This document shows, piece by piece, positions 2,675 to 54,330 of a DNA stretch of 64,000 nt. The position numbers and the translations under genes were made by a program. Position 1 is the first letter of the stretch, and each line of letters starts with the position of its first letter. This DNA is from a virus. Lineage: Duplodnaviria > Caudoviricetes. The DNA lies in the IMG/VR virus record IMGVR_UViG_3300037067_004901, positions 32,001 to 96,000 of that record. One strand, 5' to 3'. The notes under the pieces are model-generated. The model was not told the DNA's origin. It made no database searches and saw only the letters and a program-made list of their open reading frames with translations.

Positions 2675-3300
2675 TTTTTCTCCTTCGATAGAGATGTTAA
2701 CGCGGATGCAACATCATTCGATACTCTGTCTAATGTTTTTTGGTCGGGTATTAATTCTCCTATACTTATTAATAGCTCATCTTTAACTTTATTTTTAATT
2801 TCATCCAGTGTCATAAACTTCTCTAATAATTGCTTCTCAAAATTTTGATAATGTCTACAATATTTAGGTTTATATACTAAACATTTAGACATAGTTCCTT
2901 CTTCATATTTACATTTATCTTCACAACTAATACAAAGATGATATTGGTTTTCTTCTTTAAGTTTTGCGATTTCTTTTTCCAATTCTTCTACTTTATCATA
3001 TCTCTCTAAAACATCACCTATTTTATGATTTTCGAATATATTTTTATAACGAGAAATTTGTTTCTCCAATTCTTGATTATAAGCAATAGCATCTTTAATG
3101 GCTTGTGAGTGACGTTCGCAACGTTCATTTTTATTAACCAACTCACCATTCATAAATGCGCTAACAATAACGAAAGCAATTTCTTCGTATTTATTTCTTT
3201 CTTCTCCTACTTCACCGATTTCTAAATATCTAGCCGTATCTTTTATTTCTTCATTTGTGAATTGCTTCATATGAATAATTCTCCTTGTTCTATACAACAT
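2671..3300 (-). CDS. Coiled-coil hypothetical protein, paralog of 2009-2674
   Basis: Same conserved blocks plus a Cys-rich insert. Confidence 0.65.
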   Translation of the reverse strand: MLYRTRRIIHMKQFTNEEIKDTARYLEIGEVGEERNKYEEIAFVIVSAFMNGELVNKNERCERHSQAIKDAIAYNQELEKQISRYKNIFENHKIGDVLERYDKVEELEKEIAKLKEENQYHLCISCEDKCKYEEGTMSKCLVYKPKYCRHYQNFEKQLLEKFMTLDEIKNKVKDELLISIGELIPDQKTLDRVSNDVASALTSLSKEKK

Positions 3301-3326
3301 ACTTTATTGTCCATTTGCTCGATTTC

Positions 3327-3500
3327 TTATTTTGTTATCATCAACAATGTTATAAAGATGCCTATTAAAAGCGAAAATATACTCGCTAACATAAGACGCA
3401 ACATATTTTCTTGTTTTTCGCCTGTTATTATGAGCCAAACAAAAATAGCAGAACAAAACATAAAACCCAAAAGATTTACTGATAGCTTTATAAGATACAT
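3327..3500 (-). CDS. 57-aa two-TM membrane protein (not in ORF track), paralog of 9368-9538
   Basis: Hand translation MYLIKLSVNLLGFMFCSAIFVWLIITGEKQENMLRLMLASIFSLLIGIFITLLMITK. Confidence 0.7.
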   Translation of the reverse strand: MYLIKLSVNLLGFMFCSAIFVWLIITGEKQENMLRLMLASIFSLLIGIFITLLMITK

Positions 3501-3572
3501 TTGCTCGCGCCCTTTCTTATATTAAAAATAAATATAGCTTCGCACTTGATAACCGTAAACTATCATCATAAC

Positions 3573-4025
3573 CTACTGTGTGTTATATCTGTATTGAGTC
3601 TTTGCGCAAGCGTCGCCTAATCTCTTATGACATACTTTGTGCCAACCACTAACACGCTTGTTAACAGCCCATTCTTTCTTGCATTCAGGACATATCGCTA
3701 TGAACTTCTTCGCTGGCTGTATTACTGTTGCGCTATCATACGCTCTGCGCGGGGAACAACCTATTTCAACGCATTTTAATTTAAATATTCTATTATGACC
3801 ATTATAACTACCAACTAAAGCGTGCGCTATCTCGTGAAGTATAACATCAGTAACCGTTTCTTCATTATTCAATTCAACTAAACACGCCGAAAGTGTTATA
3901 GTCTGCGTTCTAAAATGAGCGCAACCAAATCTACGCTTTGCGTTATCAAAACAAAAAGTCCAATCAAGCAGATTATGCTTCTGCATTAACTTTTTTGCCT
4001 TTTTTTCGCAATGCTCAATATTCAT
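3573..4025 (-). CDS. SprT-like zinc metalloprotease
   Basis: AKRRFG motif, HEIAH zinc motif, downstream GH, C-terminal CPEC zinc ribbon. Confidence 0.85.
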   Translation of the reverse strand: MNIEHCEKKAKKLMQKHNLLDWTFCFDNAKRRFGCAHFRTQTITLSACLVELNNEETVTDVILHEIAHALVGSYNGHNRIFKLKCVEIGCSPRRAYDSATVIQPAKKFIAICPECKKEWAVNKRVSGWHKVCHKRLGDACAKTQYRYNTQ

Positions 4026-10342: not shown

Positions 10343-10975
10343 TAGATTGGTATAATCCGTTCAACTGTCAAGAGTAGAAAACTGGCTTTCGAGACTTAAC
10401 TTTCGAGAACTGGCTTTTAATAGTTGGATTTCGACATTCTATTCTCAACTATATAGAAAGTTAGTTTCTTAACGGAATAGCGGCTATAGTAAGTTCTTAA
10501 CAGAATGAACTGTAAATATGATACTCGCGTCTCGGCAATAGATAAAATCGCTTAAAAACGCTTACATTTTACGCCATTTGCTCTACTTTCTATAGGAACT
10601 AACTTTTGTTTACACAAAAAACTCGAAACTCGGATGAGCTAGTTTCACACTCAAAAGCCAGTTATTTCGCTCGGCAAAAGTTAGAAACTGGCTTTTTGTT
10701 AAGAGAATTTTTTAGTTGGTGATGTCCTAGTCTAATTACACCCGAGTGCTTTTTTCGGGTGCAGGAAAATACACTGCAAAAACACACAACAAACTACGTG
10801 AAAGTGACCAACGGTTACAAAAAAAACGACCTTCCATATGGGTGCCTGTAGGAGTCGTGGAAAATGCTAACCAAAAAAATATCTAACTTTTTATATAAAT
10901 ATATATATTCTTAACAGGAAACTTGTGCTGGTTTTGTTTAACAGATTTTTATACTTTTAACTGTTAAGAGAATTT
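10333..10975. repeat. Dispersed repeated motifs in non-coding region
   Basis: AACTGGCTTT near 10380, 10408, 10686 and inverted at 10654; TCTTAACAG/CTGTTAAGAG near 10334, 10495, 10697, 10909, 10961. Confidence 0.6.
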
Positions 10976-11137
10976 GTGTGATTTCCAATTATATAGACAT
11001 ATATCAACATAGTGCTTTTTTTCGTAACTATTGGTCACATTCGAGCGTCAAAGTGAAGTTTTTTAAATATCCATTTTTTTTACAAAATAGCTGTTTTTCT
11101 TCATTAAAACGATTTTATTTTGCAGGTTAAGATAATG

Positions 11138-11662: not shown

Positions 11663-11905
11663 ATGGGTTGTTATATGAATAAGATAATGTTAGTTATTAG
11701 TATAGCATTAGTTATGCTGTTTGCAAATGAAGCGTCTGCGCTAAATGTAATGCGTGTCAACGGGTCTGTTACGCATAGAAGTATAAATCGAAAAGAAATG
11801 CGTAATATAACAAATCAAGATAGGGTGAATTCATCACGTTATATCTTTATAAATAACAAAAAGAGAGGGGGTGAACAAGATGAAGAAAAGGATAAAGCTG
11901 AATAA
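11663..11905 (+). CDS. Small hypothetical protein with signal-peptide-like N-terminus
   Basis: MNKIMLVISIALVMLFANEASA; downstream of promoter. Confidence 0.45.
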   Translation: MGCYMNKIMLVISIALVMLFANEASALNVMRVNGSVTHRSINRKEMRNITNQDRVNSSRYIFINNKKRGGEQDEEKDKAE

Positions 11906-12194
11906 ATATGTCGTGAACACGACTAAGGCTGGAGGGCTCGTATTTACAGCTTTGAAGACGCTCGCTAATAATAAAAAGCGAACTGACAAAGCAACGTTAT
12001 CGAGAAGTGAAGTCAATGAATTGAAGAGGGCGAAATCGAAAGACGCCTTCTTTTCACTTGTTGATAAATATATCGTAGATAGAGCTAAGATTGGCTCTGC
12101 GGCAAAACGCGCGGGTCAGACACTAAATACCGGTTATGACGCGGCTCATTATCGAGTTGCGAAAGAATTGGGTTTAGCGAAGATAGTAGCGTAA
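11880..12194 (+). CDS. Basic hypothetical protein, paralog of 13706-14125
   Basis: GAGGGGGTG SD before ATG 11880; LK.A....F.S...K...NTGYD..H...AK.L similarity. Confidence 0.7.
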   Translation: MKKRIKLNKYVVNTTKAGGLVFTALKTLANNKKRTDKATLSRSEVNELKRAKSKDAFFSLVDKYIVDRAKIGSAAKRAGQTLNTGYDAAHYRVAKELGLAKIVA

Positions 12195-12197
12195 CGA

Positions 12198-12240
12198 GAA
12201 AAGAGGGGCGAGCGTAGAAATGCGCTCGTCTCTTTTTTTG
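12198..12240 (+). terminator. Intrinsic (possibly bidirectional) terminator
   Basis: AAAAGAGGGGCGAGCG..loop..CGCTCGTCTCTTTTTTT. Confidence 0.75.
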
Positions 12241-12321
12241 GCTTGTGAAATACAGTTGGACGCGCGCTCGTCCAATGACTTTTGCATATTTTGCTCGGTG
12301 AAGTTATAGTTAGCCGAGTGC

Positions 12322-12349
12322 TTGACTTGCGCTTTGCATAGTGTATACT
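12322..12349 (+). promoter_or_regulatory. sigma70-type promoter
   Basis: TTGACT-16 nt-TATACT. Confidence 0.65.
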
Positions 12350-12399
12350 TATAGTAGAAAGCGAGAGAGAAACGAACACAAAAGAAAGCGAGTTGAAAA

Positions 12400-12543
12400 A
12401 TGCCAAAATGTAAAGAATGCAAGAAAAGCGACAAAGTAGTTATTGCGAGTTATAAGTTAAGAAACGGTAAAAAAGATAAGTATTTTGAATGTGAACGCTG
12501 TAACTGTGTTGTTAAAAGAATAAGTAAATTTAAAATAGACTAA
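12400..12543 (+). CDS. 47-aa zinc-ribbon protein (not in ORF track)
   Basis: MPKCKECKK...FECERCNC; GAAAGCGAG SD at 12384. Confidence 0.6.
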   Translation: MPKCKECKKSDKVVIASYKLRNGKKDKYFECERCNCVVKRISKFKID

Positions 12544-12553
12544 TAGAAAGGAG

Positions 12554-12748
12554 ATGAGTAAAATGTTTACACAAATACATTATGTAGAAGTAGCAAAAGT
12601 TATTAACAAGAATATACAGAAAGCAGATAAAGTTGGTATATTCTCGAAACAAGCTGTTGTAAGCGTTGCTGTGGATTTCGCAAAATTGTTTGCAAAAGAT
12701 AATGCGAAATTTGATGTTATGAAATTTAAGTCAGCGTGCGGTATATAA
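12554..12748 (+). CDS. Small hypothetical phage protein
   Basis: AGAAAGGAG SD; C-terminal F..DN..FD..KF..ACG pattern. Confidence 0.65.
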   Translation: MSKMFTQIHYVEVAKVINKNIQKADKVGIFSKQAVVSVAVDFAKLFAKDNAKFDVMKFKSACGI

Positions 12749-12887
12749 AAATAATCGAAAGCGAGGCGCGAAATGACCGAATTATTAAGATTTGTCTATA
12801 AGTTAGAAGCTGAAAGACAGAAGCGAGAGATTAAAGCGGCGCTCATTAAGTTATTAAAGACAAAACGAGCGAGAAAGGCGGTGGCTA

Positions 12888-13478
12888 ATGTCTAATATGT
12901 CGAGATTAGCGCAGGGTATCGAAGAAGCGTGCAATGCGTGTCAAGATATGAAATGCGAGGGTTGCAAAATTGTTGTAGACATTGGCGACAAAGTAGTTAC
13001 TGTCAACGGTAAGACGCACGACATTTTGAGCGTCAAGCTTAAAGAAGAAGTAAAAAAAGAAAAAGTGAAAGAAGCTTGTATGAATTATTCGAAAGGCAAG
13101 TGGAATTTCTCGAAGTTAGCACGTTTTTTGAAACACGTTGCGTGCGTTGTGTTATTGTTGTTAATAACGCACAATGCGTTTGCAGTTGAAATAAATATTG
13201 AGAAATTGGCAGACGCAATATACAAAGCAGAGGGCGGTAGTAAGACTTCGCATCCTTACGGAATATTGAAGCATTACAAGTATACAACTGCAAGACAAGC
13301 CTGCATCAACACTATAAAGCACGCATTAAAAGATTTTAATGAGCAAGGTGACTTTATAGAGTTTTTAGGAAGTCGTTATTGCCCAACACATTGGGAAAAT
13401 ACATATCAAGCTACAAGAGAAGAATATCTATTGAATAGATATTGGGTAAAGAACGTCAAATACTTCTATAATCAATAA
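12888..13478 (+). CDS. Putative lysozyme-like (transglycosylase-fold) protein
   Basis: Internal hydrophobic signal-like segment, then AIYKAEGG (catalytic Glu-like), YGI and LGSRYCP...W; a second start at ~13080 is possible. Confidence 0.5.
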   Translation: MSNMSRLAQGIEEACNACQDMKCEGCKIVVDIGDKVVTVNGKTHDILSVKLKEEVKKEKVKEACMNYSKGKWNFSKLARFLKHVACVVLLLLITHNAFAVEINIEKLADAIYKAEGGSKTSHPYGILKHYKYTTARQACINTIKHALKDFNEQGDFIEFLGSRYCPTHWENTYQATREEYLLNRYWVKNVKYFYNQ

Positions 13479-13583: not shown

Positions 13584-13705
13584 TTTAAAAAGTTTTTAAA
13601 AAGAAGTTTAAAAAAGAACTTAGGAAGGTTCCTAAAAAAATAAGCAAAAAAAATTCGAGAAGTAAAAGACAATTTGCGCTTTGTGTTTTGTGTGTGTTTT
13701 TATTT

Positions 13706-14125
13706 TTACTTCTTTGCTTTTGCTTTCGTTGTTGTCTTTGATGTCTTCTTGACTTTCGACATCTTGACAAGCGACGCTTTGACTTCTTTCTTACGTCTAT
13801 CGTTTGACGCTGTAAAAGCGTCTTTGTTTAAGAGCTTCGCTATCGACGTATGAACTTTGTCATAGTGCGTGTTTTTCGTTAACATCGCTTTGCGTGCTTG
13901 TGCGTCGAGATGCTCGACTAACAAGAACTTGTTAGCGACGCTTGTAAACTCTTTGAACGTGCGCGCGCTTTTTAGCTTTGCGCTGTCTTGCGCGTCGAAC
14001 ACATAAGCACGCTTTTCGCTTGTGTTGTCGCTGTATAAGCGAACATAAGAGAGAGCGACTTTATTTTTTATCTGCGACGCTGTTAAATTCAGCACTTTCA
14101 AAATCATCTTTTTGAGTTTTGACAT
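13706..14125 (-). CDS. Very basic 139-aa protein with Lys-rich tail, encoded without any GG/CC dinucleotide
   Basis: Own promoter (14286-14313) and GAAAGCGAG RBS; no Gly/Pro/Trp/Cys; paralog at 11880-12194. Confidence 0.8.
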   Translation of the reverse strand: MSKLKKMILKVLNLTASQIKNKVALSYVRLYSDNTSEKRAYVFDAQDSAKLKSARTFKEFTSVANKFLLVEHLDAQARKAMLTKNTHYDKVHTSIAKLLNKDAFTASNDRRKKEVKASLVKMSKVKKTSKTTTKAKAKK

Positions 14126-14285
14126 TGTGTATCTCGCTTTCTTGCGCTTTGTCTTTTACTTCTCGAACTTTACTTTTTAAATGTTTACTTACTCGACGCT
14201 ATGCTTTCGCATTAGTTTATAACGTTTTACGTTCAGCATTTAAATTTCATTATTTGTTAATGAGCGTTTAACTTCTTATGTATAT

Positions 14286-14313
14286 AGTATATCATATTAT
14301 ATACTAAATGCAA
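14286..14313 (-). promoter_or_regulatory. sigma70-type promoter for 13706-14125
   Basis: Minus strand TTGCAT-16 nt-TATACT with extended -10 TG; same layout as the 4806-4833 promoter. Confidence 0.75.
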
Positions 14314-14569
14314 GAATTATTTTATATTTTTTCGTTTTTATTTTTATGCTAATAAGCACGAAAAGATATAACATACCCCCCAGTTATTTCTCGTCGAGAA
14401 AAAAAGTTGAAAAATAAAAATCGATGTCTACTGTATCTTACACTGAAGGTCCGCATTTTTTGTAATTGTAGTATAGAATATCACCAACTAAATATAATAT
14501 GTCATATATGTTATTTTTATTATCGAAACTTCACTTTTATTTCAAAATATATATTTTTTTATTTTTCCC

Positions 14570-15381: not shown

Positions 15382-17010
<1,629 letters not shown>

Positions 17011-17041: not shown

Positions 17042-17869
17042 ATGCAAGTCGTTGATTTATCAAAAAAACAAGAATTAGAAAAATTTGATGTTAAAGTAAG
17101 CGAAGAACTTATTGTAGCGATAAGTCAATACAAGAGTATTGATTATACAAAATCGGCTATAGAAGCATTAAAGAAAGAGGGCGTTAAGTTTACAACGCTC
17201 ATTTTGTTTGATGGTAGTTCTGATGAAGATTATGAGAAAATTCAGAATCTTGCTGATATAAGCATTCGAATAAAGAAACGGATAAATAGCTTACCACAAA
17301 TATGGAACATCATGTTTGGCGCAGCCAAGCTCACCGCGGCTAAATATTTGTATTGGCAAGGTTCTGATATGTTATTAAACGAGCATGGTTTAGAAAATAT
17401 GCTCATGACTATGAAGTTAGGTTATGACGCAGTAAGTCCAATTAAAATTGATAATGATGTTGAAAGATTTAAAAATTATAAAAGAGTTTATAATCGCGTA
17501 ATGCGATGTGCTGGTATAAATGATAGCGCATGTCTATTTCGTTTAGATAAGCTAGACTTTTTTTGTTTTGATGAAATGTATGCGCCGTATCAATTCGAGA
17601 CAAGCGCGTTGGGTTATGCGCTGTTTCGTAAAAAATGCAGAATGTGCATAGATGATAACGCTGTCATATTACATTATTGCAGTAAAGATATAGAGCATAG
17701 CCCAAAAGAGCGTGAAATCGGAAGTAAAACTTGGGATATGAAGCGCGATTATTTTTTAAAAGACGCAAGTGAAGATAAGAGATGGTTCTTTGAAAAATCT
17801 ATAATGAACAGCGAAATCGTAAAAGATATTGGGTTCCCAGCGCATATTTATTTAGGAGACCCAAAATGA
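17042..17869 (+). CDS. GT-A (GT2-like) glycosyltransferase
   Basis: ILFDGSSD, IWN, degenerate DxD, C-terminal ILH. Confidence 0.55.
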   Translation: MQVVDLSKKQELEKFDVKVSEELIVAISQYKSIDYTKSAIEALKKEGVKFTTLILFDGSSDEDYEKIQNLADISIRIKKRINSLPQIWNIMFGAAKLTAAKYLYWQGSDMLLNEHGLENMLMTMKLGYDAVSPIKIDNDVERFKNYKRVYNRVMRCAGINDSACLFRLDKLDFFCFDEMYAPYQFETSALGYALFRKKCRMCIDDNAVILHYCSKDIEHSPKEREIGSKTWDMKRDYFLKDASEDKRWFFEKSIMNSEIVKDIGFPAHIYLGDPK

Positions 17870-18924
17870 ACATACTAGTTTGTGTCGGAGCAAGTGAACC
17901 GAGTTATACGAGTAGCAAGAGTTTTATTAGAGCGTTAAAACGCGCTGGGTATGATGTCAGAACGTGTGGTGCATATTATAAATACGATAGAGAACGCACA
18001 GAACAAGTCGATTTTGAATTAGAAGACAAATGTTTTCCAGAATTATATACATATGAAGAAGTATTAAAAAGCACTAAAGATTTTAAAGCAGATATTATAT
18101 TACAAATAGAACCACATTTTTATTTATGTGGGGAAAAACCAAAAGATATAAAAAGTTATTATTGGATTCTAGACCCACATCGAGGTGGTTATGCATACAG
18201 AAATCTTGCTAAACAAGGTGATTTTAATGCATTGTTTATGTCGCAAACTTATTTTTCTGATAGTTATTTAGAATTTGCAAAAAAAATTTATTTCTTTCCA
18301 CAAGCAGTAGATATAGATAGAATTAAATATGATGAAAACATTAAAGCAGAATGCGACATCGCGTTTATCGGTGAAACAGGCATTGCAGATAGATGCATGA
18401 GATACGACAAACGAGATGCAGATAATTATGAATATACGAATTTAATTAATGATAATTATATATTAGATTCAGAAATATATAAAGATTACGCAGAAAGAGC
18501 GAAATTGTTAATGTTGTTATCTCGTGGCTTTGATGTTCGTATATATAAAAAGAATTTTAATACAGATTATTCTAAAATAATACAAAAAGGTAAAATTGCT
18601 TTTCATCGTAGTTTATTTAAAGATATAACATTGCGAAATTTTGAATCTTTAGCTTTAAAGCGTGCGCTTGTATGCGATTACGTACCGAATCTAGAAAAGT
18701 TGATGATAAACTATAAGCATTGTCTTATGTATAAAGCTTTTGGATTCAATACAGAACTTGAAAACTTTAAACTTGATTATGAACAGGCGAAAGAAGCTGT
18801 TGACATTTTGCTAAAAGATGATAAAATGAGAAATGATATTGCAGAGAATGCGTATCAACATGTTATGAAATATCATACTTTTGATAATCGCGTTAAAGAA
18901 ATGATGAGCGTTATTACGGGATAG
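17866..18924 (+). CDS. CgeB/Glyco_trans_1_2-type glycosyltransferase
   Basis: FFPQAVD, DIAFIG, RNFES, IAENAYQHVMKYHTFDNRVKEM C-terminal signature. Confidence 0.8.
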   Translation: MNILVCVGASEPSYTSSKSFIRALKRAGYDVRTCGAYYKYDRERTEQVDFELEDKCFPELYTYEEVLKSTKDFKADIILQIEPHFYLCGEKPKDIKSYYWILDPHRGGYAYRNLAKQGDFNALFMSQTYFSDSYLEFAKKIYFFPQAVDIDRIKYDENIKAECDIAFIGETGIADRCMRYDKRDADNYEYTNLINDNYILDSEIYKDYAERAKLLMLLSRGFDVRIYKKNFNTDYSKIIQKGKIAFHRSLFKDITLRNFESLALKRALVCDYVPNLEKLMINYKHCLMYKAFGFNTELENFKLDYEQAKEAVDILLKDDKMRNDIAENAYQHVMKYHTFDNRVKEMMSVITG

Positions 18925-22566: not shown

Positions 22567-24090
22567 ATGTCAAGATTTAATCAATCTACAAAAACTGTAA
22601 AATCTTCTAAAACTGTAAATGCAGAAGGTGCAGAAGCATACACTTTAACACCAAAGTTAGAGTTGTATTCGCTTGCTTGTACTTTTCTTGGACAGGATAA
22701 ATTTTATGAGAAAGCAGATAAGCAATTAAAAAGGCTTGTAGAACTGATTAAAAAGAATGACCCGGAATTTGTCGCGAAATTGGCTGTATATGTTCGCGAG
22801 AAAATGTATTTGAGAACATTACCACTTGTATTGTCTGTTGAATTAGCCAAAGTACATAGTGGTGACAATCTAGTATCTCGTGCTGTTGAGCGCGTTATAC
22901 AACGTGTTGATGAATTAACAGAGATACTTGCATATTATCAATTTTCAAACAACAGAAAGGATGTAAAAAAACTTTCTAAACTTTCCAAACAAATCAGATT
23001 AGGTATTGCAAATGCTTTTAATAAATTTGATTCTTATCAATTCTCTAAATATAATCGAGATAATGAGATTAAACTAAAAGACGCTTTATTTATTTCGCAT
23101 CCGTTTCCAAAAGATAACAAACAAGAAAATATTTTTAAAAAGATAGTAGATGATACTTTAGAAGTTCCATATACTTGGGAAGTAGAGCTATCGCGTTTAG
23201 GTCAACAAAAGTTCGATACAGAAGAAGCGAAAGCAGAAGCAGTTTCTAAGAAATGGGAAGAACTGATAGCTAGCAATAAACTTGGTTATATGGCTACTCT
23301 AAGAAATTTAAGAAATATCTTGGATGCTAAAGTCTCTACTATTTATATAGAGAAAGTCTGTCAGTATTTATCGAATGCAAAAGCTGTAAGAAATTCCAAA
23401 CAGTTACCTTTTAGATTTTTCTCTGCATATAGAGAATTAGAAGGGAATGCTTCGAAACATACTGACAAAATACTTTTTGCTTTAGAAGAAGCAGTTAAGA
23501 TAAGCATAGAGAACATACCAACCCTTAATGGTGATGTTCTGATTGCTTGTGATGTGTCTGGGTCTATGCAAACTCCTATCTCTGCTAAATCTAAAGTTGA
23601 ACGTTACGATATTGGGTTATTGTTAGGACAGTTGTTAAGATTGAAATGTGAAAACAATATACTTGGTATCTTTGGAGATACGTTTAAAGTAAAAAGAACA
23701 ACTAGCAAAGAACTACTATCGAATACAATGAGACTTCACGATATTGAAGGCGAAGTAGGGTATTCTACTAATGGTTATCTAGTGATAGATTGGTTGATAA
23801 AAAACAAAGTAGTGATGGATAAAGTAATAATGTTCACTGATTGTCAGATGTGGGATAGTAGATATGGGAACACTCAAAACTTCGCTGATTATTGGAGAAC
23901 ATATAAACAGATTGCACCAAAAGCAAAACTTATTCTCTTTGATATGGCTGGATATGGAAATACTCCTATAGACACAAAAACAAATGATGTGTATTTGATA
24001 GCAGGATGGAGTGATAAAATATTCGATATGATAGAAGCATATGAAAATAAAGAAAGTGCTGTCAAAGAAATAGAAGCGATGGAGATATGA
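22567..24090 (+). CDS. rsr: Ro60/TROVE-domain RNA-binding protein with vWA domain
   Basis: N-terminal NAEGAEAY, TWEVELS, YMATLRNL, LPFRFFSAY, MIDAS DVSGSM, FTDCQ, IAGWSD. Confidence 0.95.
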   Translation: MSRFNQSTKTVKSSKTVNAEGAEAYTLTPKLELYSLACTFLGQDKFYEKADKQLKRLVELIKKNDPEFVAKLAVYVREKMYLRTLPLVLSVELAKVHSGDNLVSRAVERVIQRVDELTEILAYYQFSNNRKDVKKLSKLSKQIRLGIANAFNKFDSYQFSKYNRDNEIKLKDALFISHPFPKDNKQENIFKKIVDDTLEVPYTWEVELSRLGQQKFDTEEAKAEAVSKKWEELIASNKLGYMATLRNLRNILDAKVSTIYIEKVCQYLSNAKAVRNSKQLPFRFFSAYRELEGNASKHTDKILFALEEAVKISIENIPTLNGDVLIACDVSGSMQTPISAKSKVERYDIGLLLGQLLRLKCENNILGIFGDTFKVKRTTSKELLSNTMRLHDIEGEVGYSTNGYLVIDWLIKNKVVMDKVIMFTDCQMWDSRYGNTQNFADYWRTYKQIAPKAKLILFDMAGYGNTPIDTKTNDVYLIAGWSDKIFDMIEAYENKESAVKEIEAMEI

Positions 24091-28674: not shown

Positions 28675-29349
28675 GTGTTTGCGTGGAAAACTGCAAATGT
28701 GAAAAAAATAATCAAAATGGCTAATATAGACAAAAGAATCGATGTTTTAATACTATCTGCTGGAAAAGGCAGTAGAATTAAATCGCAATTTGGGAACACA
28801 CCAAAAGCATTAATAGAACATAATGGGGAAGTTGCTTTAAATAAAGTATTACATCCATTTACTAAAAGTGTAGATGATTTTAAAATATCTATTAATGTTA
28901 GAAAAGATGAAGTTGATGTATTTAAAAATTTAGGTTTTGATTTATTGATTGAAGATTTTCCATTAGGCAATGCTGGCGCGATTAAATTATTTGGTGCTAA
29001 TTTATCTGACCCATTTATTGTTAGTCATAATGATGTAGATTTACGAGATATCAATGCAATCGATTTTTATATGGAACATTTACAAAATGATAGTTTTGTA
29101 ACGATGTCTGTTTTTAATACTGCGCATGAAAAAGAACGTGGTATAATAGTTAAAAAATATAACAAAGTATTAAACTTTACGCGTGAGCGTTGGGTAAACT
29201 GTGGTTTTTATTGTGTAAGTCATAAAACTTTTGATATTCTTGATGATGGTTTTCAGGATATTGACGAACATATGTTACCAAGATTATCTTCTATACATCA
29301 ATTATCTTGTTATGAGTATAAAGGATTTTATGAAGATTGGGGTAGATAA
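28675..29349 (+). CDS. Sugar-1-phosphate nucleotidyltransferase (HddC-like)
   Basis: LSAGKGSR..PKAL, PLGNAGAI, HND, NCGFY, YEDWG; start may be ATG ~28717. Confidence 0.85.
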   Translation: MFAWKTANVKKIIKMANIDKRIDVLILSAGKGSRIKSQFGNTPKALIEHNGEVALNKVLHPFTKSVDDFKISINVRKDEVDVFKNLGFDLLIEDFPLGNAGAIKLFGANLSDPFIVSHNDVDLRDINAIDFYMEHLQNDSFVTMSVFNTAHEKERGIIVKKYNKVLNFTRERWVNCGFYCVSHKTFDILDDGFQDIDEHMLPRLSSIHQLSCYEYKGFYEDWGR

Positions 29350-29936
29350 TGAATTATAATGAATTAGTAAAAGAAGCACTAGAAAAGTATAGTGTGAATG
29401 GTTTGGGTGGTTGGATGTCTGTTATAGATAGAGATTGGATATCACAATTTTTAACTACTAAATTTGATAGAAATGTTACAATAGAGATAGCTGAAGTAGG
29501 TGTATTTCAGGGTGGTTCGTCATTAATTTATTTAGTTGCGCTTCCTAATTGTAAATTTCACGCAATAGACAATTGGCTTGGTGGACCAGCTTCACCTGGT
29601 TTTGAAACAATTAAAGAAGGATTTATTTATTTTACAAAACAATTTGAAGATAGAATAGTAATGCATAGTGGTGATTCTACAGAAATTGGAAAACAATGGA
29701 ATATAGAATTAGACTTATGTATGGTAGATGCAAATCATGATTTACATTTTCCAAGAGAAGATATATTCTATTATAGTAAATGGATTAAGAAAAATGGTTA
29801 TTTGTTAATTGATGATTATGATATGCCAAACGTAAAACAAGCTGTAGACTTTATGATACTTAATCATCCTAATTGGAAATTTATACATAATACTGTGCCA
29901 GATGGTGGCAAAGTAATAACATTTCAGAGGATGTAA
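29349..29936 (+). CDS. SAM-dependent methyltransferase (Methyltransf_24-like)
   Basis: EVGVFQGGS, DANH, IDDY. Confidence 0.85.
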   Translation: MNYNELVKEALEKYSVNGLGGWMSVIDRDWISQFLTTKFDRNVTIEIAEVGVFQGGSSLIYLVALPNCKFHAIDNWLGGPASPGFETIKEGFIYFTKQFEDRIVMHSGDSTEIGKQWNIELDLCMVDANHDLHFPREDIFYYSKWIKKNGYLLIDDYDMPNVKQAVDFMILNHPNWKFIHNTVPDGGKVITFQRM

Positions 29937-30553
29937 TGTTAAATATAAAACAACAATTTTTAAATAAATGGCATAAATATCTAGAATCAGAAAAATGGAA
30001 TAAACATGGTGGAGATGGATTCAAAACATGGGGTCATGGAAATTTTCCATTTGTTGCATCATTAGTTCCAGATAGTGCAAAAAAAGTTTTAGAAATAGGT
30101 TGCGCAGATGGATATTTATCACATCTTTTAATACAAAAAGGACATGATGTTATAGGTTTAACATATGCAGAAAATGAACAACGTAATTGTATAAAAAATG
30201 GTGTTAATGCTATATTATCAGATATGCATGACTTACCATTTTTAGATGATACATTTGATGCTATTGTATCAAGACAAACATTAGAACATGCTTTATCTCC
30301 ATTAGTAGTTTTATTTGAATGTAATAGAGTATTAAAACATAATGGTTATTTAATAATACATATTCCATATAGTTTAGACGGGACAGATTATTCATTAGAT
30401 TATCATCACTCTCCCTTCACACCAATACAATGGAGATTTTATTTATATAAATCTGGTTTTAGAGAAATACTTAAAGAAGATAGAGATATAGAACAAAACT
30501 CATATTACTTTATAGTAAGAAAAACAGAAGTATTGACTTGGGAGATTTCGTAG
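29936..30553 (+). CDS. Class I SAM-dependent methyltransferase
   Basis: VLEIGCADG, DMHDLPFLDDTFD, LEH, RVLK..G. Confidence 0.9.
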   Translation: MLNIKQQFLNKWHKYLESEKWNKHGGDGFKTWGHGNFPFVASLVPDSAKKVLEIGCADGYLSHLLIQKGHDVIGLTYAENEQRNCIKNGVNAILSDMHDLPFLDDTFDAIVSRQTLEHALSPLVVLFECNRVLKHNGYLIIHIPYSLDGTDYSLDYHHSPFTPIQWRFYLYKSGFREILKEDRDIEQNSYYFIVRKTEVLTWEIS

Positions 30554-31143
30554 TGAACATTGATGAAATATTAAGAACAGTTGATAAAATACCTGGTACT
30601 GGTGGCAGAATGGATTATGCTATGAATTTACATAAAATTGCAATGAAATTACCGGATAATGCGATTATTGTAGAGATTGGAACTCAAAATGGTGGTTCAG
30701 CCGCAACATTTGCATTAACGTTAAAAGAACGTGGTGTTAAAATATATTGCATAGACCCTTGTTTTATCAAAGAAGAAGATAGACCAGCATCATATAGTCA
30801 ATATGCTATTGGGGCATACACTATGAAAGGTATTGTAGAAAAATTTACTGAATTGAATATTTTAAATAACTTTATATTTTTAGCTGGTACAAGTCAAGAG
30901 GTGTTACCTAGATATAATGGTGAAAAATTTGACATGTTATATATTGATGGGTCTCATACATATGAAGAAGTAAAAATTGATATATCTTGGTTAAAACATG
31001 CAAAAGATAAATGTATATTAATGCTTGATGATTGGATAAAACCCGTTGAACAAGCTTGTAATGAAGAAATAATAAAATTTAAAAACTTTACACAACGTAC
31101 AGATAATAATTTTTGGCCTATGTATTTTACTAGAGGATATTAA
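30538..31143 (+). CDS. SAM-dependent methyltransferase (Methyltransf_24-like)
   Basis: VEIGTQNGGS, FDMLYIDGSHTYE, LDDW. Confidence 0.85.
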   Translation: MGDFVVNIDEILRTVDKIPGTGGRMDYAMNLHKIAMKLPDNAIIVEIGTQNGGSAATFALTLKERGVKIYCIDPCFIKEEDRPASYSQYAIGAYTMKGIVEKFTELNILNNFIFLAGTSQEVLPRYNGEKFDMLYIDGSHTYEEVKIDISWLKHAKDKCILMLDDWIKPVEQACNEEIIKFKNFTQRTDNNFWPMYFTRGY

Positions 31144-32078
31144 TGAAAATTTTTATACCATATAGACCATCTCGCGGTGGTTTAGATAGTATTGGAAATA
31201 ATCCAATGCAACTAGATGATTATTCTTTTCAAGCAGATAATAATAACAATAGAAGACATCCTGATGATGATATACATAGATGTTTAAAATCTATAGCTAA
31301 AAATTCAAGATATAGACACGAAGCAGTGGTTTGCATTGATGAAGATTTACAAATATGCGATGATTGGCTTAAACATTTAAATATACAAGATAGACTTGAT
31401 ATTACTATCTTTCGATGTAAAAATAAAGGCATAACAGATGCACATAATAGATTACCAGAATCTTTAAAACAAGCAATATTATCGCTAGCTACAGATAAAG
31501 ATATTATTGCATATGATTTAATAGCAGATGCTATAGTTTGTAAAAACTGGGATGTACAGATTATAAATTGTGTGAAAGAATTTGGAGAAAAATATTATTA
31601 TGCATCAATGTTTGTTGAACCAAGAACAGAGCAATCTAGAGCATTAGTAAGTGATATATCAAGACAAGATGTAATTGAGGATATAAAGAAATGTTCTCCA
31701 CAAACTGTAAATAATATATGGAATTTATGGAGAAAATCTATTTGTTGTCATTCATTAACAATGATACCAAAATTAGATAGAAATTATGCTATTGAATCTG
31801 ATTTCGATGAATATATATCTATAGCAAACCAATTTGATAAAGAATATATAATAGAAAATGCAGGAGAAAGAACTTATGGATATTGGGCTCCATTAATATC
31901 TACGGGTAGAATATTCAAAGAATTATTACAAAAAATGGTGTGTATCTCTGGTTCTGATTTATGGTTAGATAATAATTTCCCAATGCAAAAAATGGTATTA
32001 TGTCGTTCTTATGTGTTTCATATGCACTATAAAACTATTTTAGATGATAAAAAAGTGGAGTATGTAAATGAAAATTGA
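31143..32078 (+). CDS. Probable GT-A glycosyltransferase-like protein
   Basis: IFIPYR, CLKSI, VVCID, degenerate DxD, VFH; cluster context. Confidence 0.5.
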   Translation: MKIFIPYRPSRGGLDSIGNNPMQLDDYSFQADNNNNRRHPDDDIHRCLKSIAKNSRYRHEAVVCIDEDLQICDDWLKHLNIQDRLDITIFRCKNKGITDAHNRLPESLKQAILSLATDKDIIAYDLIADAIVCKNWDVQIINCVKEFGEKYYYASMFVEPRTEQSRALVSDISRQDVIEDIKKCSPQTVNNIWNLWRKSICCHSLTMIPKLDRNYAIESDFDEYISIANQFDKEYIIENAGERTYGYWAPLISTGRIFKELLQKMVCISGSDLWLDNNFPMQKMVLCRSYVFHMHYKTILDDKKVEYVNEN

Positions 32079-33525
32079 TGTATTATTTATACATCCAGGT
32101 AATCATAAACAAACATATCAAGAATTATCTAAAAAATATACAGCGATAGCTCCGCCAGTATGGACATCATTGCTTGCTAATTATGTACGTAATAAAGGTT
32201 ATTCTGTTGCTATACACGACACCAATTTATACGGATTTGATATATATAGGGAAATGAAAAATTATTATGCGAAGTTAATTGTTTTAATGGTATATGGACA
32301 TCATCCTTCAGCTTCTACACAAACCATGCCGAGTGCATCTGTGATTATAAATAAAATAAAAGATTTTGACAAATCTATACCAATTGCTATTGGTGGTACA
32401 CATCCGTCTGCAATACCAAAAAGAACGTTATATGAAGAAAAGGCAGACTTTGTTATTGTCGGAGAGGGTGCATATCAAATTGTTAGTTTATTAGATTATT
32501 TAAATGGAAATATTAAATTAAACGATGTGCAGGGTGTAGTTTATCAAAATGATGTTTTTATATCAATTACTAATACACCATCTCCATTGATTAAAGATTT
32601 AGATAAAGAATTAAATGATTATGCATTTGATTTATTACCTAATTTAAATAAATATAGAGCACATGCACATCATGTATTTGGGTATAATAGTGCTTCCCCA
32701 TATGTTACATTAAATACATCATTAGGTTGTCCATATAATTGTGAATTCTGTTGTATAAATTCTGTTTTTAATAAACCAGGTATAAGATATTGGAATATTG
32801 ATACTGTGTTATCTTGGATAGATAAACTAGTAAAAAAATATCATATACAGCATATTAGATTCGATGATGAATTATTTGTGTTAGATAAAAAACGTTTAGA
32901 AGAATTTTGCGATAAATTAATACAAAGAAATTATAATTTAAATATATGGGTATATGCGCGCGTGGATACTATACCAGAAAAATTATTAAATAAGATGAGA
33001 AAAGCTGGTATTAATTGGATATGTCTTGGTATTGAATCTGCTAATAACATAGTTAGAACTAATGTTAAAAAAAATATTAATAAAGACATAGAACATATTG
33101 TTAAAAGTATAAAAGATAACGACATTAATATTATAGGAAATTATATGTTTGGTTTACCAGACGATACAATAGAAACCATGCAAGAAACATTAGACCTAGC
33201 AATAAAACTAAATTGTGAATATGCTAATTTTTATTGTACTATGGCATATCCCGGTTCTGCATTGTATAATAATTTTGGTGACAATCATTGTGTTATCCCA
33301 AAAACATGGGAAGCGTTTTCACAACATTCATATGAAACACAACCGTTACCTACTAAATATATTTCAGCTAAAGACGTATTACAATTTAGAGATAAAGCAT
33401 TTTATAATTATTTTTCAAACCCAAAATATTTAAATATGATACAAAAAAAATTTGGTGAAAAAGTTAAATTAGACATAGAAGATATGCTAAAAATAAAAAT
33501 AAAACGGAGATTATTAAATGATTGA
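32068..33525 (+). CDS. Cobalamin-binding radical SAM enzyme
   Basis: GGTHPS B12-binding domain, SLGCPYNCEFC, LGIES, MFGLP, YPGS. Confidence 0.92.
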   Translation: MKIDVLFIHPGNHKQTYQELSKKYTAIAPPVWTSLLANYVRNKGYSVAIHDTNLYGFDIYREMKNYYAKLIVLMVYGHHPSASTQTMPSASVIINKIKDFDKSIPIAIGGTHPSAIPKRTLYEEKADFVIVGEGAYQIVSLLDYLNGNIKLNDVQGVVYQNDVFISITNTPSPLIKDLDKELNDYAFDLLPNLNKYRAHAHHVFGYNSASPYVTLNTSLGCPYNCEFCCINSVFNKPGIRYWNIDTVLSWIDKLVKKYHIQHIRFDDELFVLDKKRLEEFCDKLIQRNYNLNIWVYARVDTIPEKLLNKMRKAGINWICLGIESANNIVRTNVKKNINKDIEHIVKSIKDNDINIIGNYMFGLPDDTIETMQETLDLAIKLNCEYANFYCTMAYPGSALYNNFGDNHCVIPKTWEAFSQHSYETQPLPTKYISAKDVLQFRDKAFYNYFSNPKYLNMIQKKFGEKVKLDIEDMLKIKIKRRLLND

Positions 33526-34342
33526 TATGACAGACTTATTACTAAAATCACATCAAATGCGGGAATTATTATATGAGGTATGTGTAAACGCTAAAACAGG
33601 GCATTTAACTTCTTCTTTATCGTGCACTGAAATACTAGTAGCTTTATATTATTCTGGAGTAATGAGACATGACCCAAAAAATCCAAAATGGGAAGGAAGA
33701 GATAGATTTATTTTGAGCAAAGGTCAGGCTAGTCCAATATTGTACGCTATTTTAGCAGATTTAGGATATTATAATAAAAAAGAATTAAAAAAATTTGCGC
33801 AACTTGATGGTATCTTTGGGGTACATTTACAAAAAAGTGTGCCCGGTGTAGAAATTACTGCTGGTTCTTTAGGACACGGATTTAATATTGCAACTGGAAT
33901 GGCGTTAGTTTCAAAAAAAGATAGAACTTACAATATGGTGTTTACTTTACTTGGAGATGGAGAATGTTATGAAGGTTCTATTTGGGAAGCCGCTATGTTC
34001 GCTGGTCATAATAATTTGAATAATTTAGTTGCAATTATGGACAGAAATTTTATGTGCGCTACTGACTTTACTGAAGAATGCTTATCATTAGAACCATTAG
34101 AGGATAAATTTAAATCATTTAATTGGGAAGTGCAGAGAATAAATGGTAATAATATTTGGGAAGTTGTTAATGCTTTAAAATATGTACGTTCAAGACGTTC
34201 TGTGAAACCCAAATTGATTATTGCTGATACTGTAAAAGGGTCAGGTATAAAAAGCACTTGTGATGAAACATTATGGCACTCCAGAACACCACTAAAGAAA
34301 GAAGATATTGATAAATGTAGGAAGGAGTTGAAAGATGAATAA
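33518..34342 (+). CDS. Transketolase-like, N-terminal TPP-binding subunit
   Basis: GHLTSSLS, DRFILSKG, GSLGHG, GDGE...N. Confidence 0.93.
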   Translation: MIDMTDLLLKSHQMRELLYEVCVNAKTGHLTSSLSCTEILVALYYSGVMRHDPKNPKWEGRDRFILSKGQASPILYAILADLGYYNKKELKKFAQLDGIFGVHLQKSVPGVEITAGSLGHGFNIATGMALVSKKDRTYNMVFTLLGDGECYEGSIWEAAMFAGHNNLNNLVAIMDRNFMCATDFTEECLSLEPLEDKFKSFNWEVQRINGNNIWEVVNALKYVRSRRSVKPKLIIADTVKGSGIKSTCDETLWHSRTPLKKEDIDKCRKELKDE

Positions 34343-35252
34343 TACACAGCAAAGAGATGCATTTTTTAATACACTTTATGAAATAGCAAAAAATGATAAA
34401 AATGTTTATTTAGTTAGTGCAGATATGTCTGCCCCATCTTTAGATAAATTTAGAAAAGACTTAGCACATCAGTATGTAAATGTAGGTATAGCTGAACAGA
34501 ATGCAATTAGCATAGCTTCTGGAATGGCACTCGAAGGTAAGAAAGTGTTTGTATATGGTATAGCATCTTTCATATCTACTAGATGTTTAGAACAAATAAG
34601 AATTAGTTGTGGTCTTATGAAAATACCATTAACAATAGTTGCTATAGGGTCTGGTTTTAGTTATGAAGAATCTGGACCAACACATCATATTTTTGAAGAT
34701 ATATCATTAATACGTGCTATACCAAATGTTATAATAAATAATTGCACAGATTCAATTATGGCGTCTCAATTAGCATATTCATCGTATGGTTGTAATGTTG
34801 CTAATTATGTTAGATTAGATAGAAAAAAAACAGATAATATATATTATACAAACTCTGTATATTATAGTGGATATAATGTACTTCAAGATGGGAAAAGATA
34901 TATCTTATCTACAGGTATTATGACACATACCGCACTAAAGATAGCACATACCATGCAGGATGTTGGGGTGATAGATGTACATACATTCCCATTTAGTTAT
35001 GCACTATATGATGTTTTAAAACATTGTGATAAGATAATAACAATGGAAGAACATATATTAAATGGTGGGATGGGAAGTGCTGTGCTTGAATTTTTAAGCG
35101 ATTGTAACAGTAATATACCAGTTTTAAGAATAGGTATAAAAAATGCAGATGGATATTGTTATAAATACGGTGGTAGAGAGAGCGTAATATGGAAATATTA
35201 TGGAATAGATGAAGCAACATCAACCAATAAAATTAAGGAGTTTTTATCTTGA
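34335..35252 (+). CDS. Transketolase-like, C-terminal subunit
   Basis: NVGIAEQN, GPTHH, EEH...GGMGS. Confidence 0.93.
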   Translation: MNNTQQRDAFFNTLYEIAKNDKNVYLVSADMSAPSLDKFRKDLAHQYVNVGIAEQNAISIASGMALEGKKVFVYGIASFISTRCLEQIRISCGLMKIPLTIVAIGSGFSYEESGPTHHIFEDISLIRAIPNVIINNCTDSIMASQLAYSSYGCNVANYVRLDRKKTDNIYYTNSVYYSGYNVLQDGKRYILSTGIMTHTALKIAHTMQDVGVIDVHTFPFSYALYDVLKHCDKIITMEEHILNGGMGSAVLEFLSDCNSNIPVLRIGIKNADGYCYKYGGRESVIWKYYGIDEATSTNKIKEFLS

Positions 35253-35776
35253 GAAGTTCATTTGAATATGTAATAGAACACATACATCCCAAAATAGTGG
35301 CTGAAATAGGTGTAGCATCTGGAGACAATGCATTTGATATGTTATTTAATTATCCTTTAGAATACATGTTACTTGTAGATAGTTATATACCATATCGTGA
35401 TAATGCAAATCATGGTATAATAAATTTAGAACAACAAAATAATAATTTTATGAATGTGTTAAGTAAGTTTATACCAAGACAACTTTTTGGAAAAGTAATT
35501 TTTTCATGTATGCCATCAGAAAAAATAGTGAAATATTATCCAGATAATTTTTTTGATTATGTATATATCGATGCTAATCATGAATATGAAAATGTAAAAC
35601 CAGATATAGAACTGTGGTTTCCAAAAGTAAAAAACAAGTGTTTTTTAGCTGGACATGATTATGAAGGATATTATCCAGATGTAACAAGAGCAGTTAATGA
35701 ATTTAAAGACAATCATAAAGATACTATAGAATTTATTAAATGTTCTGAATATGATTGGTTGTTTTATAAAAAATAA
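35249..35776 (+). CDS. SAM-dependent methyltransferase (Methyltransf_24-like)
   Basis: EIGVASG, DYVYIDANHEYE, AGHDY. Confidence 0.85.
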   Translation: MRSSFEYVIEHIHPKIVAEIGVASGDNAFDMLFNYPLEYMLLVDSYIPYRDNANHGIINLEQQNNNFMNVLSKFIPRQLFGKVIFSCMPSEKIVKYYPDNFFDYVYIDANHEYENVKPDIELWFPKVKNKCFLAGHDYEGYYPDVTRAVNEFKDNHKDTIEFIKCSEYDWLFYKK

Positions 35777-35791
35777 ACAATAGGATAAAAA

Positions 35792-36505
35792 ATGCCTTGT
35801 TGGTTAGATAAATGCGCTGTTGAACAAACATTAAAATTAAGAGACGAATTCGATATAAATGTTTTTGTAGAAACTGGTACATTTAAAGGTTGTGGTGCAG
35901 AATTATATTCAAATTATTTTGGATATGTTGTGACATGTGATATTAATGAAGACTATTGCAATATTGCACGGGAACGTTTAAAAAATAAAAATAATGTCAG
36001 TATTGTACATGATAATAGTTTTAATGTTATATCTAGAATAGTAAATGCACATAAAGAAGATGATTTTAAAGAACATATATTTTTATTTTTAGATGCTCAT
36101 ATCTATAATAAAGATGCTAAAACAGATGATGAGAAGTGGGTAATTATAAAAGAATTGCAAGCATTAAAAGATTTTAAATATTCCATAATAGCAATACATG
36201 ATTTTGATTGTAGTAATCTTGGTCATATTAAATATAATGGAGAATCATTTAATTGGAGCGTAGTTGGAAAATATTTACAAGAAGTAAATCCAGACTTCAG
36301 TTATTATTGTAATACAAAAGAATTTTGTGACCCAAGAAATTATGATAGAGTTAAAGAAATACCAGTAACTATGAATGAGGATACAATAGATATGATTCAA
36401 CATGCTAATAGCGCAGATGAGAAGAAATATCGTGGTATATTATATGCTATACCTAAAGAACTTGACTTATCTAAATATAAATTGGTAAAATTTCAACATG
36501 TTTAA
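35792..36505 (+). CDS. Methyltransferase-fold protein
   Basis: FVETGTFKG, FLDAH, IHD. Confidence 0.65.
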   Translation: MPCWLDKCAVEQTLKLRDEFDINVFVETGTFKGCGAELYSNYFGYVVTCDINEDYCNIARERLKNKNNVSIVHDNSFNVISRIVNAHKEDDFKEHIFLFLDAHIYNKDAKTDDEKWVIIKELQALKDFKYSIIAIHDFDCSNLGHIKYNGESFNWSVVGKYLQEVNPDFSYYCNTKEFCDPRNYDRVKEIPVTMNEDTIDMIQHANSADEKKYRGILYAIPKELDLSKYKLVKFQHV

Positions 36506-37816
36506 AACAGCTATAATTATACCAACATTACACTTTTGGAGAAATCCAAATAAACAACAACCGATTAATGAGTTATATTTTGCTACAGTATTAGATGAAA
36601 GATGCGATACTGCAATTGATATTATCGACTTACGAGAATTGAGAAAAGAAGATTGTCAATATACACTTGATAATGTAGCAGATTTTATTGAAGAACGTGA
36701 TTTATATATTCACTGGATAGATAGAACCGCGAACTTTGCTGAAATTATTAATGTAACGAAACAGTTACGTGTAAAATATCCAAATTCAAAACATGTTGCT
36801 GGCGGGTTTCATGTTGCAAACTTACAAAAAGAATGTCTAGAAATATTTGATTCTATTGTTATTGGTCCAGGCGAAGAATCTTTTATACGAATAGTTAATG
36901 ATTGTATAAACAATAATTTAAAAAACATTTATAAAGATGATTGGAAAGATGTTCCATTTTATCAATATCCTTTTCCAAGAAGACACTATTTACGTAAAGA
37001 ACTTATATTAGATAAAGAATTATTTCAAGATTATAATGTTAATGAAGGGACGTGTGCAATCTTCTCGCGAGGTTGCCCATATACATGCGCATACTGCTGT
37101 TATAATTATCCTAATATGGCATGTCAATTAAGACGTATAGAATCTATAGAACAAGAAATAAAATATCTTAAAAAAGAATATCATGTTAAGGGTATCACAC
37201 TACGAGATGAATTATGTATACCAGTACAGACAAATAGTGCAATAGCGCAACTAGAAGCTATTGACGTAATAATATCATATGGCGTGGTCAGGGTCGTGTA
37301 TGTGTAAGCAAAGATTTACTTTTTATAGCTAAACAAAGTGGGCTAGTTGAAATATCAATAGGTGTTGAAAGCGTATCACAAAAAGTTTTAGATATCGTTA
37401 ATAAACGTCAAACAATAGTAGAAGTTAAGGAATTTATAGAACTATGCAAGAAATTAAACATTAAAGTAAAAGTTGGATTAATATTTGGACTACCCGGAGA
37501 AGAAAAAGATATAGTTAAACAAACATGTAATTTCATTAAAGAAACTCAACCAGAATATGTAAATATATCTGGATTTTGTCCTTATCCAGGTTCACCAATA
37601 TATCAAAATGCAGAGTATTATGGTATTGATTATATCGATAAAAATTGGAATAATTATGGACATTTAATATCTAATTATGATGATACAAATGATGATTTTG
37701 GTTTACCATTTAGATATAAAAAAACAACACGATTTGGAGATTCTTTTACTAGAGAAGAAATATTAAATAATATTATTACATTTAAAGAATTTTTAAAGGA
37801 ACAAAAAAATGATTAA
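36498..37816 (+). pseudogene. Second cobalamin-binding radical SAM gene, frameshifted at ~37263
   Basis: SRGCPYTCAYC in frame 1; the -1 frame from 37265 gives RNNIIWRGQGRV...IGVES...IFGLPGE...PYPGS to TAA 37814-37816. Confidence 0.8.
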
Positions 37817-38354
37817 AAAAATAGAAGACACAAAATTGCCAGAAGTTGTTTTAATAAAAAAAGATTATTTTGAAGATTTTCGTGGTAAATATATAGAAAT
37901 ATACAATGGGTTAGAGTTTAACAACATTTTTGCAGATAAGTGTATTGATTTTGTAGAAGATGATATATCTATTACAGAACATCATTGTTTAAAAGGAATA
38001 CATTGTGATACAGAAGCTTGGAAGTTAATATCTTGTTTATATGGTAAATTCTATTTAGTAATTTTAAATCTAGATAAGAACTCGAAATATTATGGTAAGT
38101 GGGAATCATTTACATTGTCAGATTCTACGTTTAAACAAGTGCTAGTTCCACCGATGCATGGGGTTGGACATTTATGTTTAAGCGACAAAAGCATATTTCA
38201 CTATAAACAAAGTAAACAATATAATATAGCTAGACAATCAACTATTGTATATAATGATAAACGATTTAATATATTTTGGCCAATAAATAATCCGATAGTA
38301 TCGTTGCGCGATAAAACAGGTGACAAATCTTTTGTGATAAAAAATGATAATTAA
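37809..38354 (+). CDS. rmlC: dTDP-4-dehydrorhamnose 3,5-epimerase family
   Basis: DFRG, LKGIH, KLISC..G, VPP..GVGH, I.WP...SLRD. Confidence 0.85.
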   Translation: MIKKIEDTKLPEVVLIKKDYFEDFRGKYIEIYNGLEFNNIFADKCIDFVEDDISITEHHCLKGIHCDTEAWKLISCLYGKFYLVILNLDKNSKYYGKWESFTLSDSTFKQVLVPPMHGVGHLCLSDKSIFHYKQSKQYNIARQSTIVYNDKRFNIFWPINNPIVSLRDKTGDKSFVIKNDN

Positions 38355-49815: not shown

Positions 49816-49837
49816 AGACAGATAGGAGGTTTATTTT

Positions 49838-54326: not shown

Positions 54327-54330
54327 AAGA

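Follow-up and report, generated by a model that had tools for sequence, protein, structure and literature searches.

Phage genomes are known to lose the short motifs that host defences read, among them restriction sites and CRISPR PAMs (PMC4246573; PMC12174588). In phage T5, only the DNA of the first-step transfer is exposed to restriction and CRISPR, and sites elsewhere in the genome are harmless (bioRxiv 10.1101/866236). Other viruses mark their own DNA at short motifs. The DpdA-dependent 7-deazaguanine marks are placed at motifs of 2-3 nt (GA and GGC in phage CAjan, GA in phage iggy) and block restriction enzymes and Cas9 (PMC7544227; PMC10484667), and chlorella virus enzymes read essentially CC and methylate its first C (PMC9636781).

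Here we describe a tailed-phage genome (Duplodnaviria; Caudoviricetes) in which one transcription unit contains neither GG nor CC from promoter to 3' end. The window analysed is a stretch of 64,000 nucleotides, corresponding to bases 32001-96000 of a linear, 105,537-base IMG/VR record (IMGVR_UViG_3300037067_004901; G000 below) that is ~60% complete; positions are those of the window unless a record or lineage is named. The major capsid protein is only ~27% identical to its actinophage counterparts, which indicates that the source phage represents a new lineage.

A gene-sized tract lacks GG and CC

The GG/CC count is zero over positions 13632-14375, a gap of 745 bases bounded by a CC (13631-13632) on one side and a C-run (14376-14381) on the other. 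This is far below the 45.1 occurrences expected from local base composition; in 20,000 shuffles the count averaged 45.1 and never fell under 27. The original prediction, a reading of the letters by eye, had proposed that GG and CC are absent from this tract and had guessed that 30-40 would be expected; the computed count bears out the absence and raises the expectation. It had also held that equally long voids should not be common elsewhere, and a search of the whole 105,537-base record found a next-longest GG/CC gap of 229 bases, leaving the 745-base tract unique. No other dinucleotide class has a comparable gap outlier anywhere in the record. Further features read from the letters were recovered by computation: the coding sequence, put at roughly 40% G+C, has 41.9% (31% for the genome); the whole 139-aa open reading frame is devoid of Gly, Pro and Trp; the promoter and the ribosome-binding site GAAAGCGAG lie inside the tract; and the tract ends abruptly at CCCCCC (14376-14381).

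CG and GC each occur in the tract at about twice their expected frequency. The rest of the genome carries GG/CC at a near-expected level (observed/expected 0.84-0.97). Two runs from different studies, one of groundwater and one of landfill, contain the identical void sequence.

Homologs were collected through protein-cluster and Logan/ENA look-ups, and the void was compared between G000 and seven further lineages; IMG/VR, JGI metagenome contigs, GTDB genomes and the INPHARED phage collection yielded no further relatives. The prediction had called for dinucleotide counts in relatives, and in all seven other lineages the same gene lies inside a void: 906 bp in L005, 783 bp in L011, 837 bp in L022, 806 bp with one exception in L008, at least 917 bp in L016, at least 910 bp in L024, and at least 453 bp in L023. 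In L015 the constraint is relaxed, and the gene contains 6 GG/CC.

The void spans a complete transcription unit

The GG/CC-free tract (13632-14375; 0 GG/CC against 45 expected) coincides with a whole transcription unit read from the minus strand. A SigA/sigma-70-type promoter with an extended -10, TTGCAT-N14-TGATATACT (14286-14313, minus strand), is conserved in L005, L011, L022, and L015. It is followed by a 5' leader of ~150 nt (14126-14279, minus strand; transcription start inferred from the -10), which ends in the GG-less ribosome-binding site GAAAGCGAG (14133-14141, minus strand). This site is kept in five lineages and, by inference, could still base-pair with a 16S rRNA of the Firmicutes type through its CUUUC end. 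Downstream of the coding sequence is a 3' untranslated region of 74 nt (13633-13705, minus strand), in which the relatives have clear, GG/CC-free terminator hairpins followed by T-runs; the hairpin of the window phage is weak.

The promoter of the unit is one of ~13 in its class, which is represented on both genome arms, and the other operons under the same class of promoter contain GG/CC. These ~13 near-identical promoters, TTGACA-N14-TGATATACT, head operons on both arms (window positions 816, 4833, 9994, 11138, 11726, 14313, 14570, 21626 and 41437, with others outside the window). Transcription of the gene converges on that of a plus-strand operon (11663-13478) and diverges from that of a long rightward arm, which starts at the promoter at 14570. 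In having a promoter of the host-polymerase type and a conserved cis element at the edge of the region, the unit shares two features with the pre-early region of T5.

Homing-endonuclease genes (HNH-like, LAGLIDADG) stand on both sides of the GG/CC-free gene in L005 (L005:9028-9444 and 10645-11061) and in L011 (L011:1776-2192 and 3299-3715); they are absent at the locus of the window phage.

The edges of the void are sharp

A G-run on the gene strand lies near the upstream edge in seven lineages, and the void starts at it or within a few bases of it. The run is six G in the window (14376-14381, minus strand), 5-6 G across G000, L005, L011, L008, L022, and L015, and 3 G in L016; in L024, the void begins near the -10. 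Immediately upstream of the run lies a conserved, GG/CC-dense element (14382-14460, minus strand), which is single-copy in the genome. Its parts come in the order of a CGGACC/CCGGACC-like box, an invariant TACAGT, a T-rich stretch, the palindrome TTCTCGTCGAGAA (14388-14400, minus strand), TAACT, and then the G-run. The 100 bases upstream of every void hold 7-16 GG/CC, against a genome mean of 4.4, and then switch abruptly to zero.

At the downstream edge of the void, a quasi-palindrome, AGGAAGGTTCCT (13622-13633), is also found 3' of the gene in L005, L011, and L015. Neither Rfam nor a search for a consensus fold gave evidence of an RNA element upstream of the gene or in its leader. Tandem repeats lie upstream of the edge element in L008 (L008:5100-5159, a 7-nt TAGATAC unit) and L024 (L024:1-120, 6-nt periodic and CC-containing), and three independent contigs end at the L008 repeat.

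Selection against GG/CC acts on the DNA duplex

The void has been kept in eight diverged lineages despite synonymous sites that are saturated between them, and dN/dS is 0.06-0.16. Saturated dS together with these ratios indicates that the 139-aa protein is functional and that the void is held by ongoing selection, as opposed to being inherited by descent.

Several observations bear on the level at which this selection operates. GG and CC are equally absent, and the codon junctions of the window gene hold 0 GG/CC against 14.9 expected from codon-order shuffles (7-15 expected across the clean copies of the gene). GG/CC is also missing from the 62 untranscribed bases that precede the -35 in the window, and in four lineages together the untranscribed DNA upstream of the -35 (62-151 bases each, 425 bases) has 0 GG/CC against 7.7 expected (P = 4e-4); all of the other promoters of this class in the genome (~13) have at least one GG/CC in the equivalent upstream stretch. 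The equal loss of both dinucleotides, the clean junctions, and the clean untranscribed DNA argue that the constraint is on duplex DNA and not on codons or mRNA. A cause at the level of codons or tRNAs is rejected because junctions and non-coding DNA are clean too, and general restriction-site avoidance is rejected as the cause of the void, since the void retains, or is even enriched in, GCGC, TCGA, ACGT, and AGCT. We conclude that the tract is an autonomous, complete and presumably early transcription unit under selection against GG/CC in the duplex.

The encoded protein and its paralogs

The coding sequence (13706-14125, minus strand) specifies a basic, 139-aa protein of an orphan family, with a pI of 10.3, 28 Lys residues and a Lys-rich tail. 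From genome amino acid frequencies, a protein of this length lacking Gly, Pro, and Trp has a probability of ~1e-6, and every clean copy in the relatives lacks the same three residues. The AlphaFold model has three strands followed by helices, with pLDDT ~90 over residues 10-100. No usable match was returned by Pfam, NCBIfam, a PDB sequence profile, Foldseek (PDB and BFVD), VIA-align wide, or the ESM Atlas, and the sole PHROGs match is to phrog_3790, a family of unknown function (E = 4e-4). Comparison with described anti-defence proteins found no sequence or fold likeness, and no fold match exceeded Z 4.7. Homologs in metagenome protein sets number 15 close and 5 distant.

Members of the family are not confined to voids. 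A diverged paralog of normal composition (17 GG/CC, 6 Gly) is located in the convergent operon of the window phage (11871-12194, plus strand), and in L008 a normal copy and the clean one, 73% identical, are 700 bp apart. Both deep branches of the family tree contain clean copies, and normal copies arise four times, with the L008 normal clade being sister to the L008 clean copy. This distribution suggests that the clean state is probably ancestral and that duplicates in ordinary operons lose the GG/CC ban. The presence of normal-composition paralogs in two phages further indicates that the constraint is a property of the locus and not of the protein.

The whole family, clean and normal copies alike (13706-14125, 11871-12194, L008, and L014), has a GC3 of 0.27-0.55 against 0.18 for the genome, with a preference for codons ending in C (Asn, Asp, and Phe) and for NCG codons (Ala, Thr, and Ser). 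This codon bias could reflect either high expression or a foreign origin.

Restriction sites survive where they overlap GG or CC

Several restriction sites are strongly avoided across the whole record. GATC occurs 3 times against 291 expected, GCWGC 15 times against ~88, and GAGTC/GACTC 14 times against ~41; AGCGCT, CTTAAG, CTGCAG, AGTACT, CTCGAG, and GTCGAC have zero copies in the record. Avoidance on this scale indicates that the phage DNA is for the most part open to attack by Type II enzymes.

The few sites that survive do so in a particular context. All 15 surviving GCWGC sites are GGCWGC or GCWGCC (binomial P = 2e-9) and all three surviving GATC sites are GGATC, compared with 9-38% in a GG/CC-flanked context for ten control motifs. 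GCWGC followed by C occurs 16 times, against 16.4 expected, and unflanked GCWGC is absent. Seven of the GCWGC survivors come after GCG, an Ala codon that is otherwise rare, which would fit selection for the flanking G at those seven sites. The same rule is followed in those relatives that avoid these sites, for GATC in L005 (1/1) and L015 (2/2), and for GCWGC in L011 (2/2). GTAC survivors, 48% of which are in a GG/CC context against up to 38% for the controls, are weakly consistent with it, and the 6-bp palindromes that contain GG/CC (26 against 34 expected) are too rare to show relaxed avoidance.

Sites of the form C...G (CATG and CTAG) have no enrichment of the GG/CC context. There, a flanking base would place the 3' C of CC within the site but not the 5' C, and the lack of enrichment implicates the 5' C. 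Most simply, phage DNA would carry a modification on this 5' C of CC, or on its paired G, that blocks these enzymes. GATC is still strongly depleted in the GGATC context (5 against 73, with GATCC at 0.07 of expectation), so that protection from the GATC enzyme would be partial at best. The survivor pattern could instead come from host enzymes with longer sites, or from a host CC methylase.

A candidate for the modifying enzyme is P0022, the sole DNA methyltransferase identified in the 105 kb, which is encoded outside the window (G000:10655-11590, minus strand; locus L019) and belongs to the N6_N4 family. It matches PF01555 at 1.8e-24 and has an AdoMet motif, DPCAGHN, followed by a catalytic TSPPYY, as methyltransferases of this class do. 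It also matches the solved N4-cytosine methyltransferases 8s9m and 8s9n; its closest NCBIfam models are adenine enzymes, far below cut-off. The SPPY tetrapeptide is typical of N4-cytosine enzymes rather than N6-adenine enzymes, an indication and not a proof of the base modified. We infer from the surviving sites that the target of P0022 would be CC. Genes for DpdA/TGT, the preQ0 pathway, and C5 methyltransferases were looked for, and none are present in the 105 kb (~60% of the genome). The original prediction had offered as an alternative that the phage modifies GG/CC sites in its own DNA, and both the GG/CC-flanked survivors and the TSPPY-type methyltransferase lend this indirect support. The prediction's added idea, that the gene needs to be unmodified so as to be transcribed before the rest, is conjectural. 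The P0022 gene has no adjoining nuclease gene and lies beside genes for an integrase-family recombinase and a RuvB-like ATPase.

Other genes of the phage

Approximately 30 kb are taken up by sugar-nucleotide, glycosyltransferase, SAM methyltransferase, B12-radical-SAM, transketolase, and GHMP kinase genes (28675-40301 and 47563-55341, and also 17042-18924), and this block lies partly between the capsid and tail genes. Its content suggests glycosylation of the virion (or of the DNA) with an unusual sugar. The window also codes for a GroEL-type chaperonin (15382-17010, plus strand) and a Ro60/TROVE protein (22567-24090, plus strand), and the left arm has RtcB, NAD synthase, nicotinamidase-like, PRTase-like, ThiF/E1, DenV-like glycosylase, peptide deformylase, and SprT-like genes. 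The chaperonin, the Ro60/TROVE protein, and these left-arm genes likely constitute a heavy load of counter-defence and repair functions.

What could keep one unit free of GG and CC

Selection that strips three amino acids from a protein and polices every codon junction implies that a two-letter DNA word is being read by some factor in the infected cell. To our knowledge, no bacterial or phage system with exact GG/CC two-letter specificity has been described.

Our leading explanation, which we advance tentatively and at not quite an even chance, is that GG/CC steps are modified genome-wide and that the unit is a modification-free island. A mark on the 5' C of CC, or on its paired G, would be present across the phage chromosome, possibly placed there by P0022, the phage's own methyltransferase of N4-cytosine type, and would shield overlapping restriction sites. 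A motif of two letters is too short to be eliminated genome-wide, and the phage would for that reason keep one unit that is free of the target and never modified. Being unmarked, this unit would be exempt from whatever reads the mark, be it Type IV nucleases, mark-binding proteins of phage or host, or interference with transcription, and an abundant, probably DNA-binding protein could be made from the incoming genome in any modification state. Paralogs in ordinary operons would be released from the GG/CC rule. We know of no case in which methylation blocks bacterial RNA polymerase, and this weakens unimpeded transcription as the benefit.

A fuller version of this explanation is a counter-defence in two parts and gives the protein a role: a blanket GG/CC mark would be accompanied by one clean early gene, bracketed by GG/CC-dense elements, whose basic product reads, coats, or makes usable the marked DNA, or else blocks modification-dependent restriction. 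We regard this added detail as possible and distinctly less probable than the island itself. If island and mark both hold, the gene would represent a new protein family acting at the first moments of infection, and P0022 would be a candidate CC-specific N4-cytosine methyltransferase and a possible tool for epigenomic footprinting. The surviving restriction sites are a purely computational handle on a hidden DNA modification, and one that is applicable to any phage genome.

The original prediction favoured a different account, namely a 'stealth' module at the leading end of the genome. The unit would evade a host reader of unmodified GG/CC, such as a CRISPR system with an NGG/CC PAM or a nuclease or nickase that recognises two letters. 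Its product would then neutralise that reader, or shield against it, before the rest of the genome enters. Part of this has stood, in that the unit is complete, under selection, and GG/CC-free at the level of the duplex. The void is strand-symmetric, as evasion of such a reader would have it, and T5 offers a precedent, since only its first-entering DNA is vulnerable to EcoRI and CRISPR (bioRxiv 10.1101/866236). The promoter faces into the unit from the G-run edge, and the terminator of the relatives lies inside the void, such that ~0.8 kb could be a first-transfer unit with a conserved, single-copy element exactly at its edge; the phage also avoids motifs and carries many likely counter-defence genes. 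However, the unit is mid-contig in every long contig, between two divergent arms, with nothing to mark a leading end. Logan contigs cross the region without informative ends, save for one low-coverage break in X2 at 14426-14450, and no terminase gene was identified in the record. The simple PAM or restriction-site form of the account fares poorly against a genome whose remainder keeps its GG/CC undepleted. Moreover, the promoter is one of ~13 alike, the basic protein resembles no known inhibitor, and the survival of restriction sites only in a GG/CC context is left unexplained. We consider evasion at first entry doubtful, and a little less probable than the version of the island in which the basic product acts on marked DNA.

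A protein that itself binds or acts on GG/CC DNA, by coating or silencing it, might need its own gene to be motif-free in order to stay expressed. Small size, strong basicity and the Lys-rich tail would suit such self-immunity, as would the shift to C-ending codons, which suggests high expression, and the position of the gene between conserved, GG/CC-dense elements. Yet the same phages carry paralogs with normal GG/CC, one of them a recent sister of a clean copy, and all other phage genes carry the motif and need to be expressed nonetheless, which makes this explanation improbable.

Escape at the level of RNA, with the mRNA dodging a dinucleotide-specific RNase or a CmdT-like RNA ADP-ribosyltransferase, seems slightly less probable again. 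In the relatives the entire transcript is clean, terminator hairpins included, the L024 void starts near the -10, and an mRNA defence that reads a dinucleotide does exist, in that CmdT reads GA (PMC11618068). Against this, GG and CC are both banned, for which one RNA reader would be insufficient, and the untranscribed upstream DNA is as clean as the transcript; the relatives showed no strand-asymmetric relaxation of the void.

Motif absence taken alone would also fit a mutational by-product, chance, or an assembly artefact, and these we dismiss, hypermutation by a CC-specific deaminase because G+C is above the genome average, CG and GC are enriched twofold, and the reading frame is under strong purifying selection, and chance or misassembly because the same sequence was recovered in two independent studies and the void in eight lineages.

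Comparison with described systems

The unit can be set beside several described systems. As in the T5 pre-early region, there is a limited early stretch in which sites matter, bounded by conserved repeat or palindrome elements. The T5 region is ~10 kb in a mapped terminal repeat and is without particular 6-bp sites, whereas here one unit of ~0.75-0.9 kb bans a 2-bp step, to the extent of altering the amino acid alphabet of its protein.

The DpdA systems resemble the proposed mark in being phage-made and placed on a short motif. The motif here is GG/CC, and TGT/DpdA and preQ0 genes are missing from the 105 kb. The chlorella virus methyltransferases act at the same first-C position that the surviving sites suggest here. 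They are C5-type enzymes of viruses of eukaryotic algae, unlike P0022, which is a candidate of the N6/N4 family with TSPPY, and a motif-free island is not described for those viruses.

The window phage also behaves like other phages that avoid restriction sites and PAMs, purging GATC, GCWGC, and several 6-mers genome-wide. The known cases of avoidance are genome-wide and partial, whereas the void is local and absolute, and runs from the promoter to the terminator of one gene. New here is a purge of GATC and GCWGC in which every survivor overlaps a flanking GG or CC.
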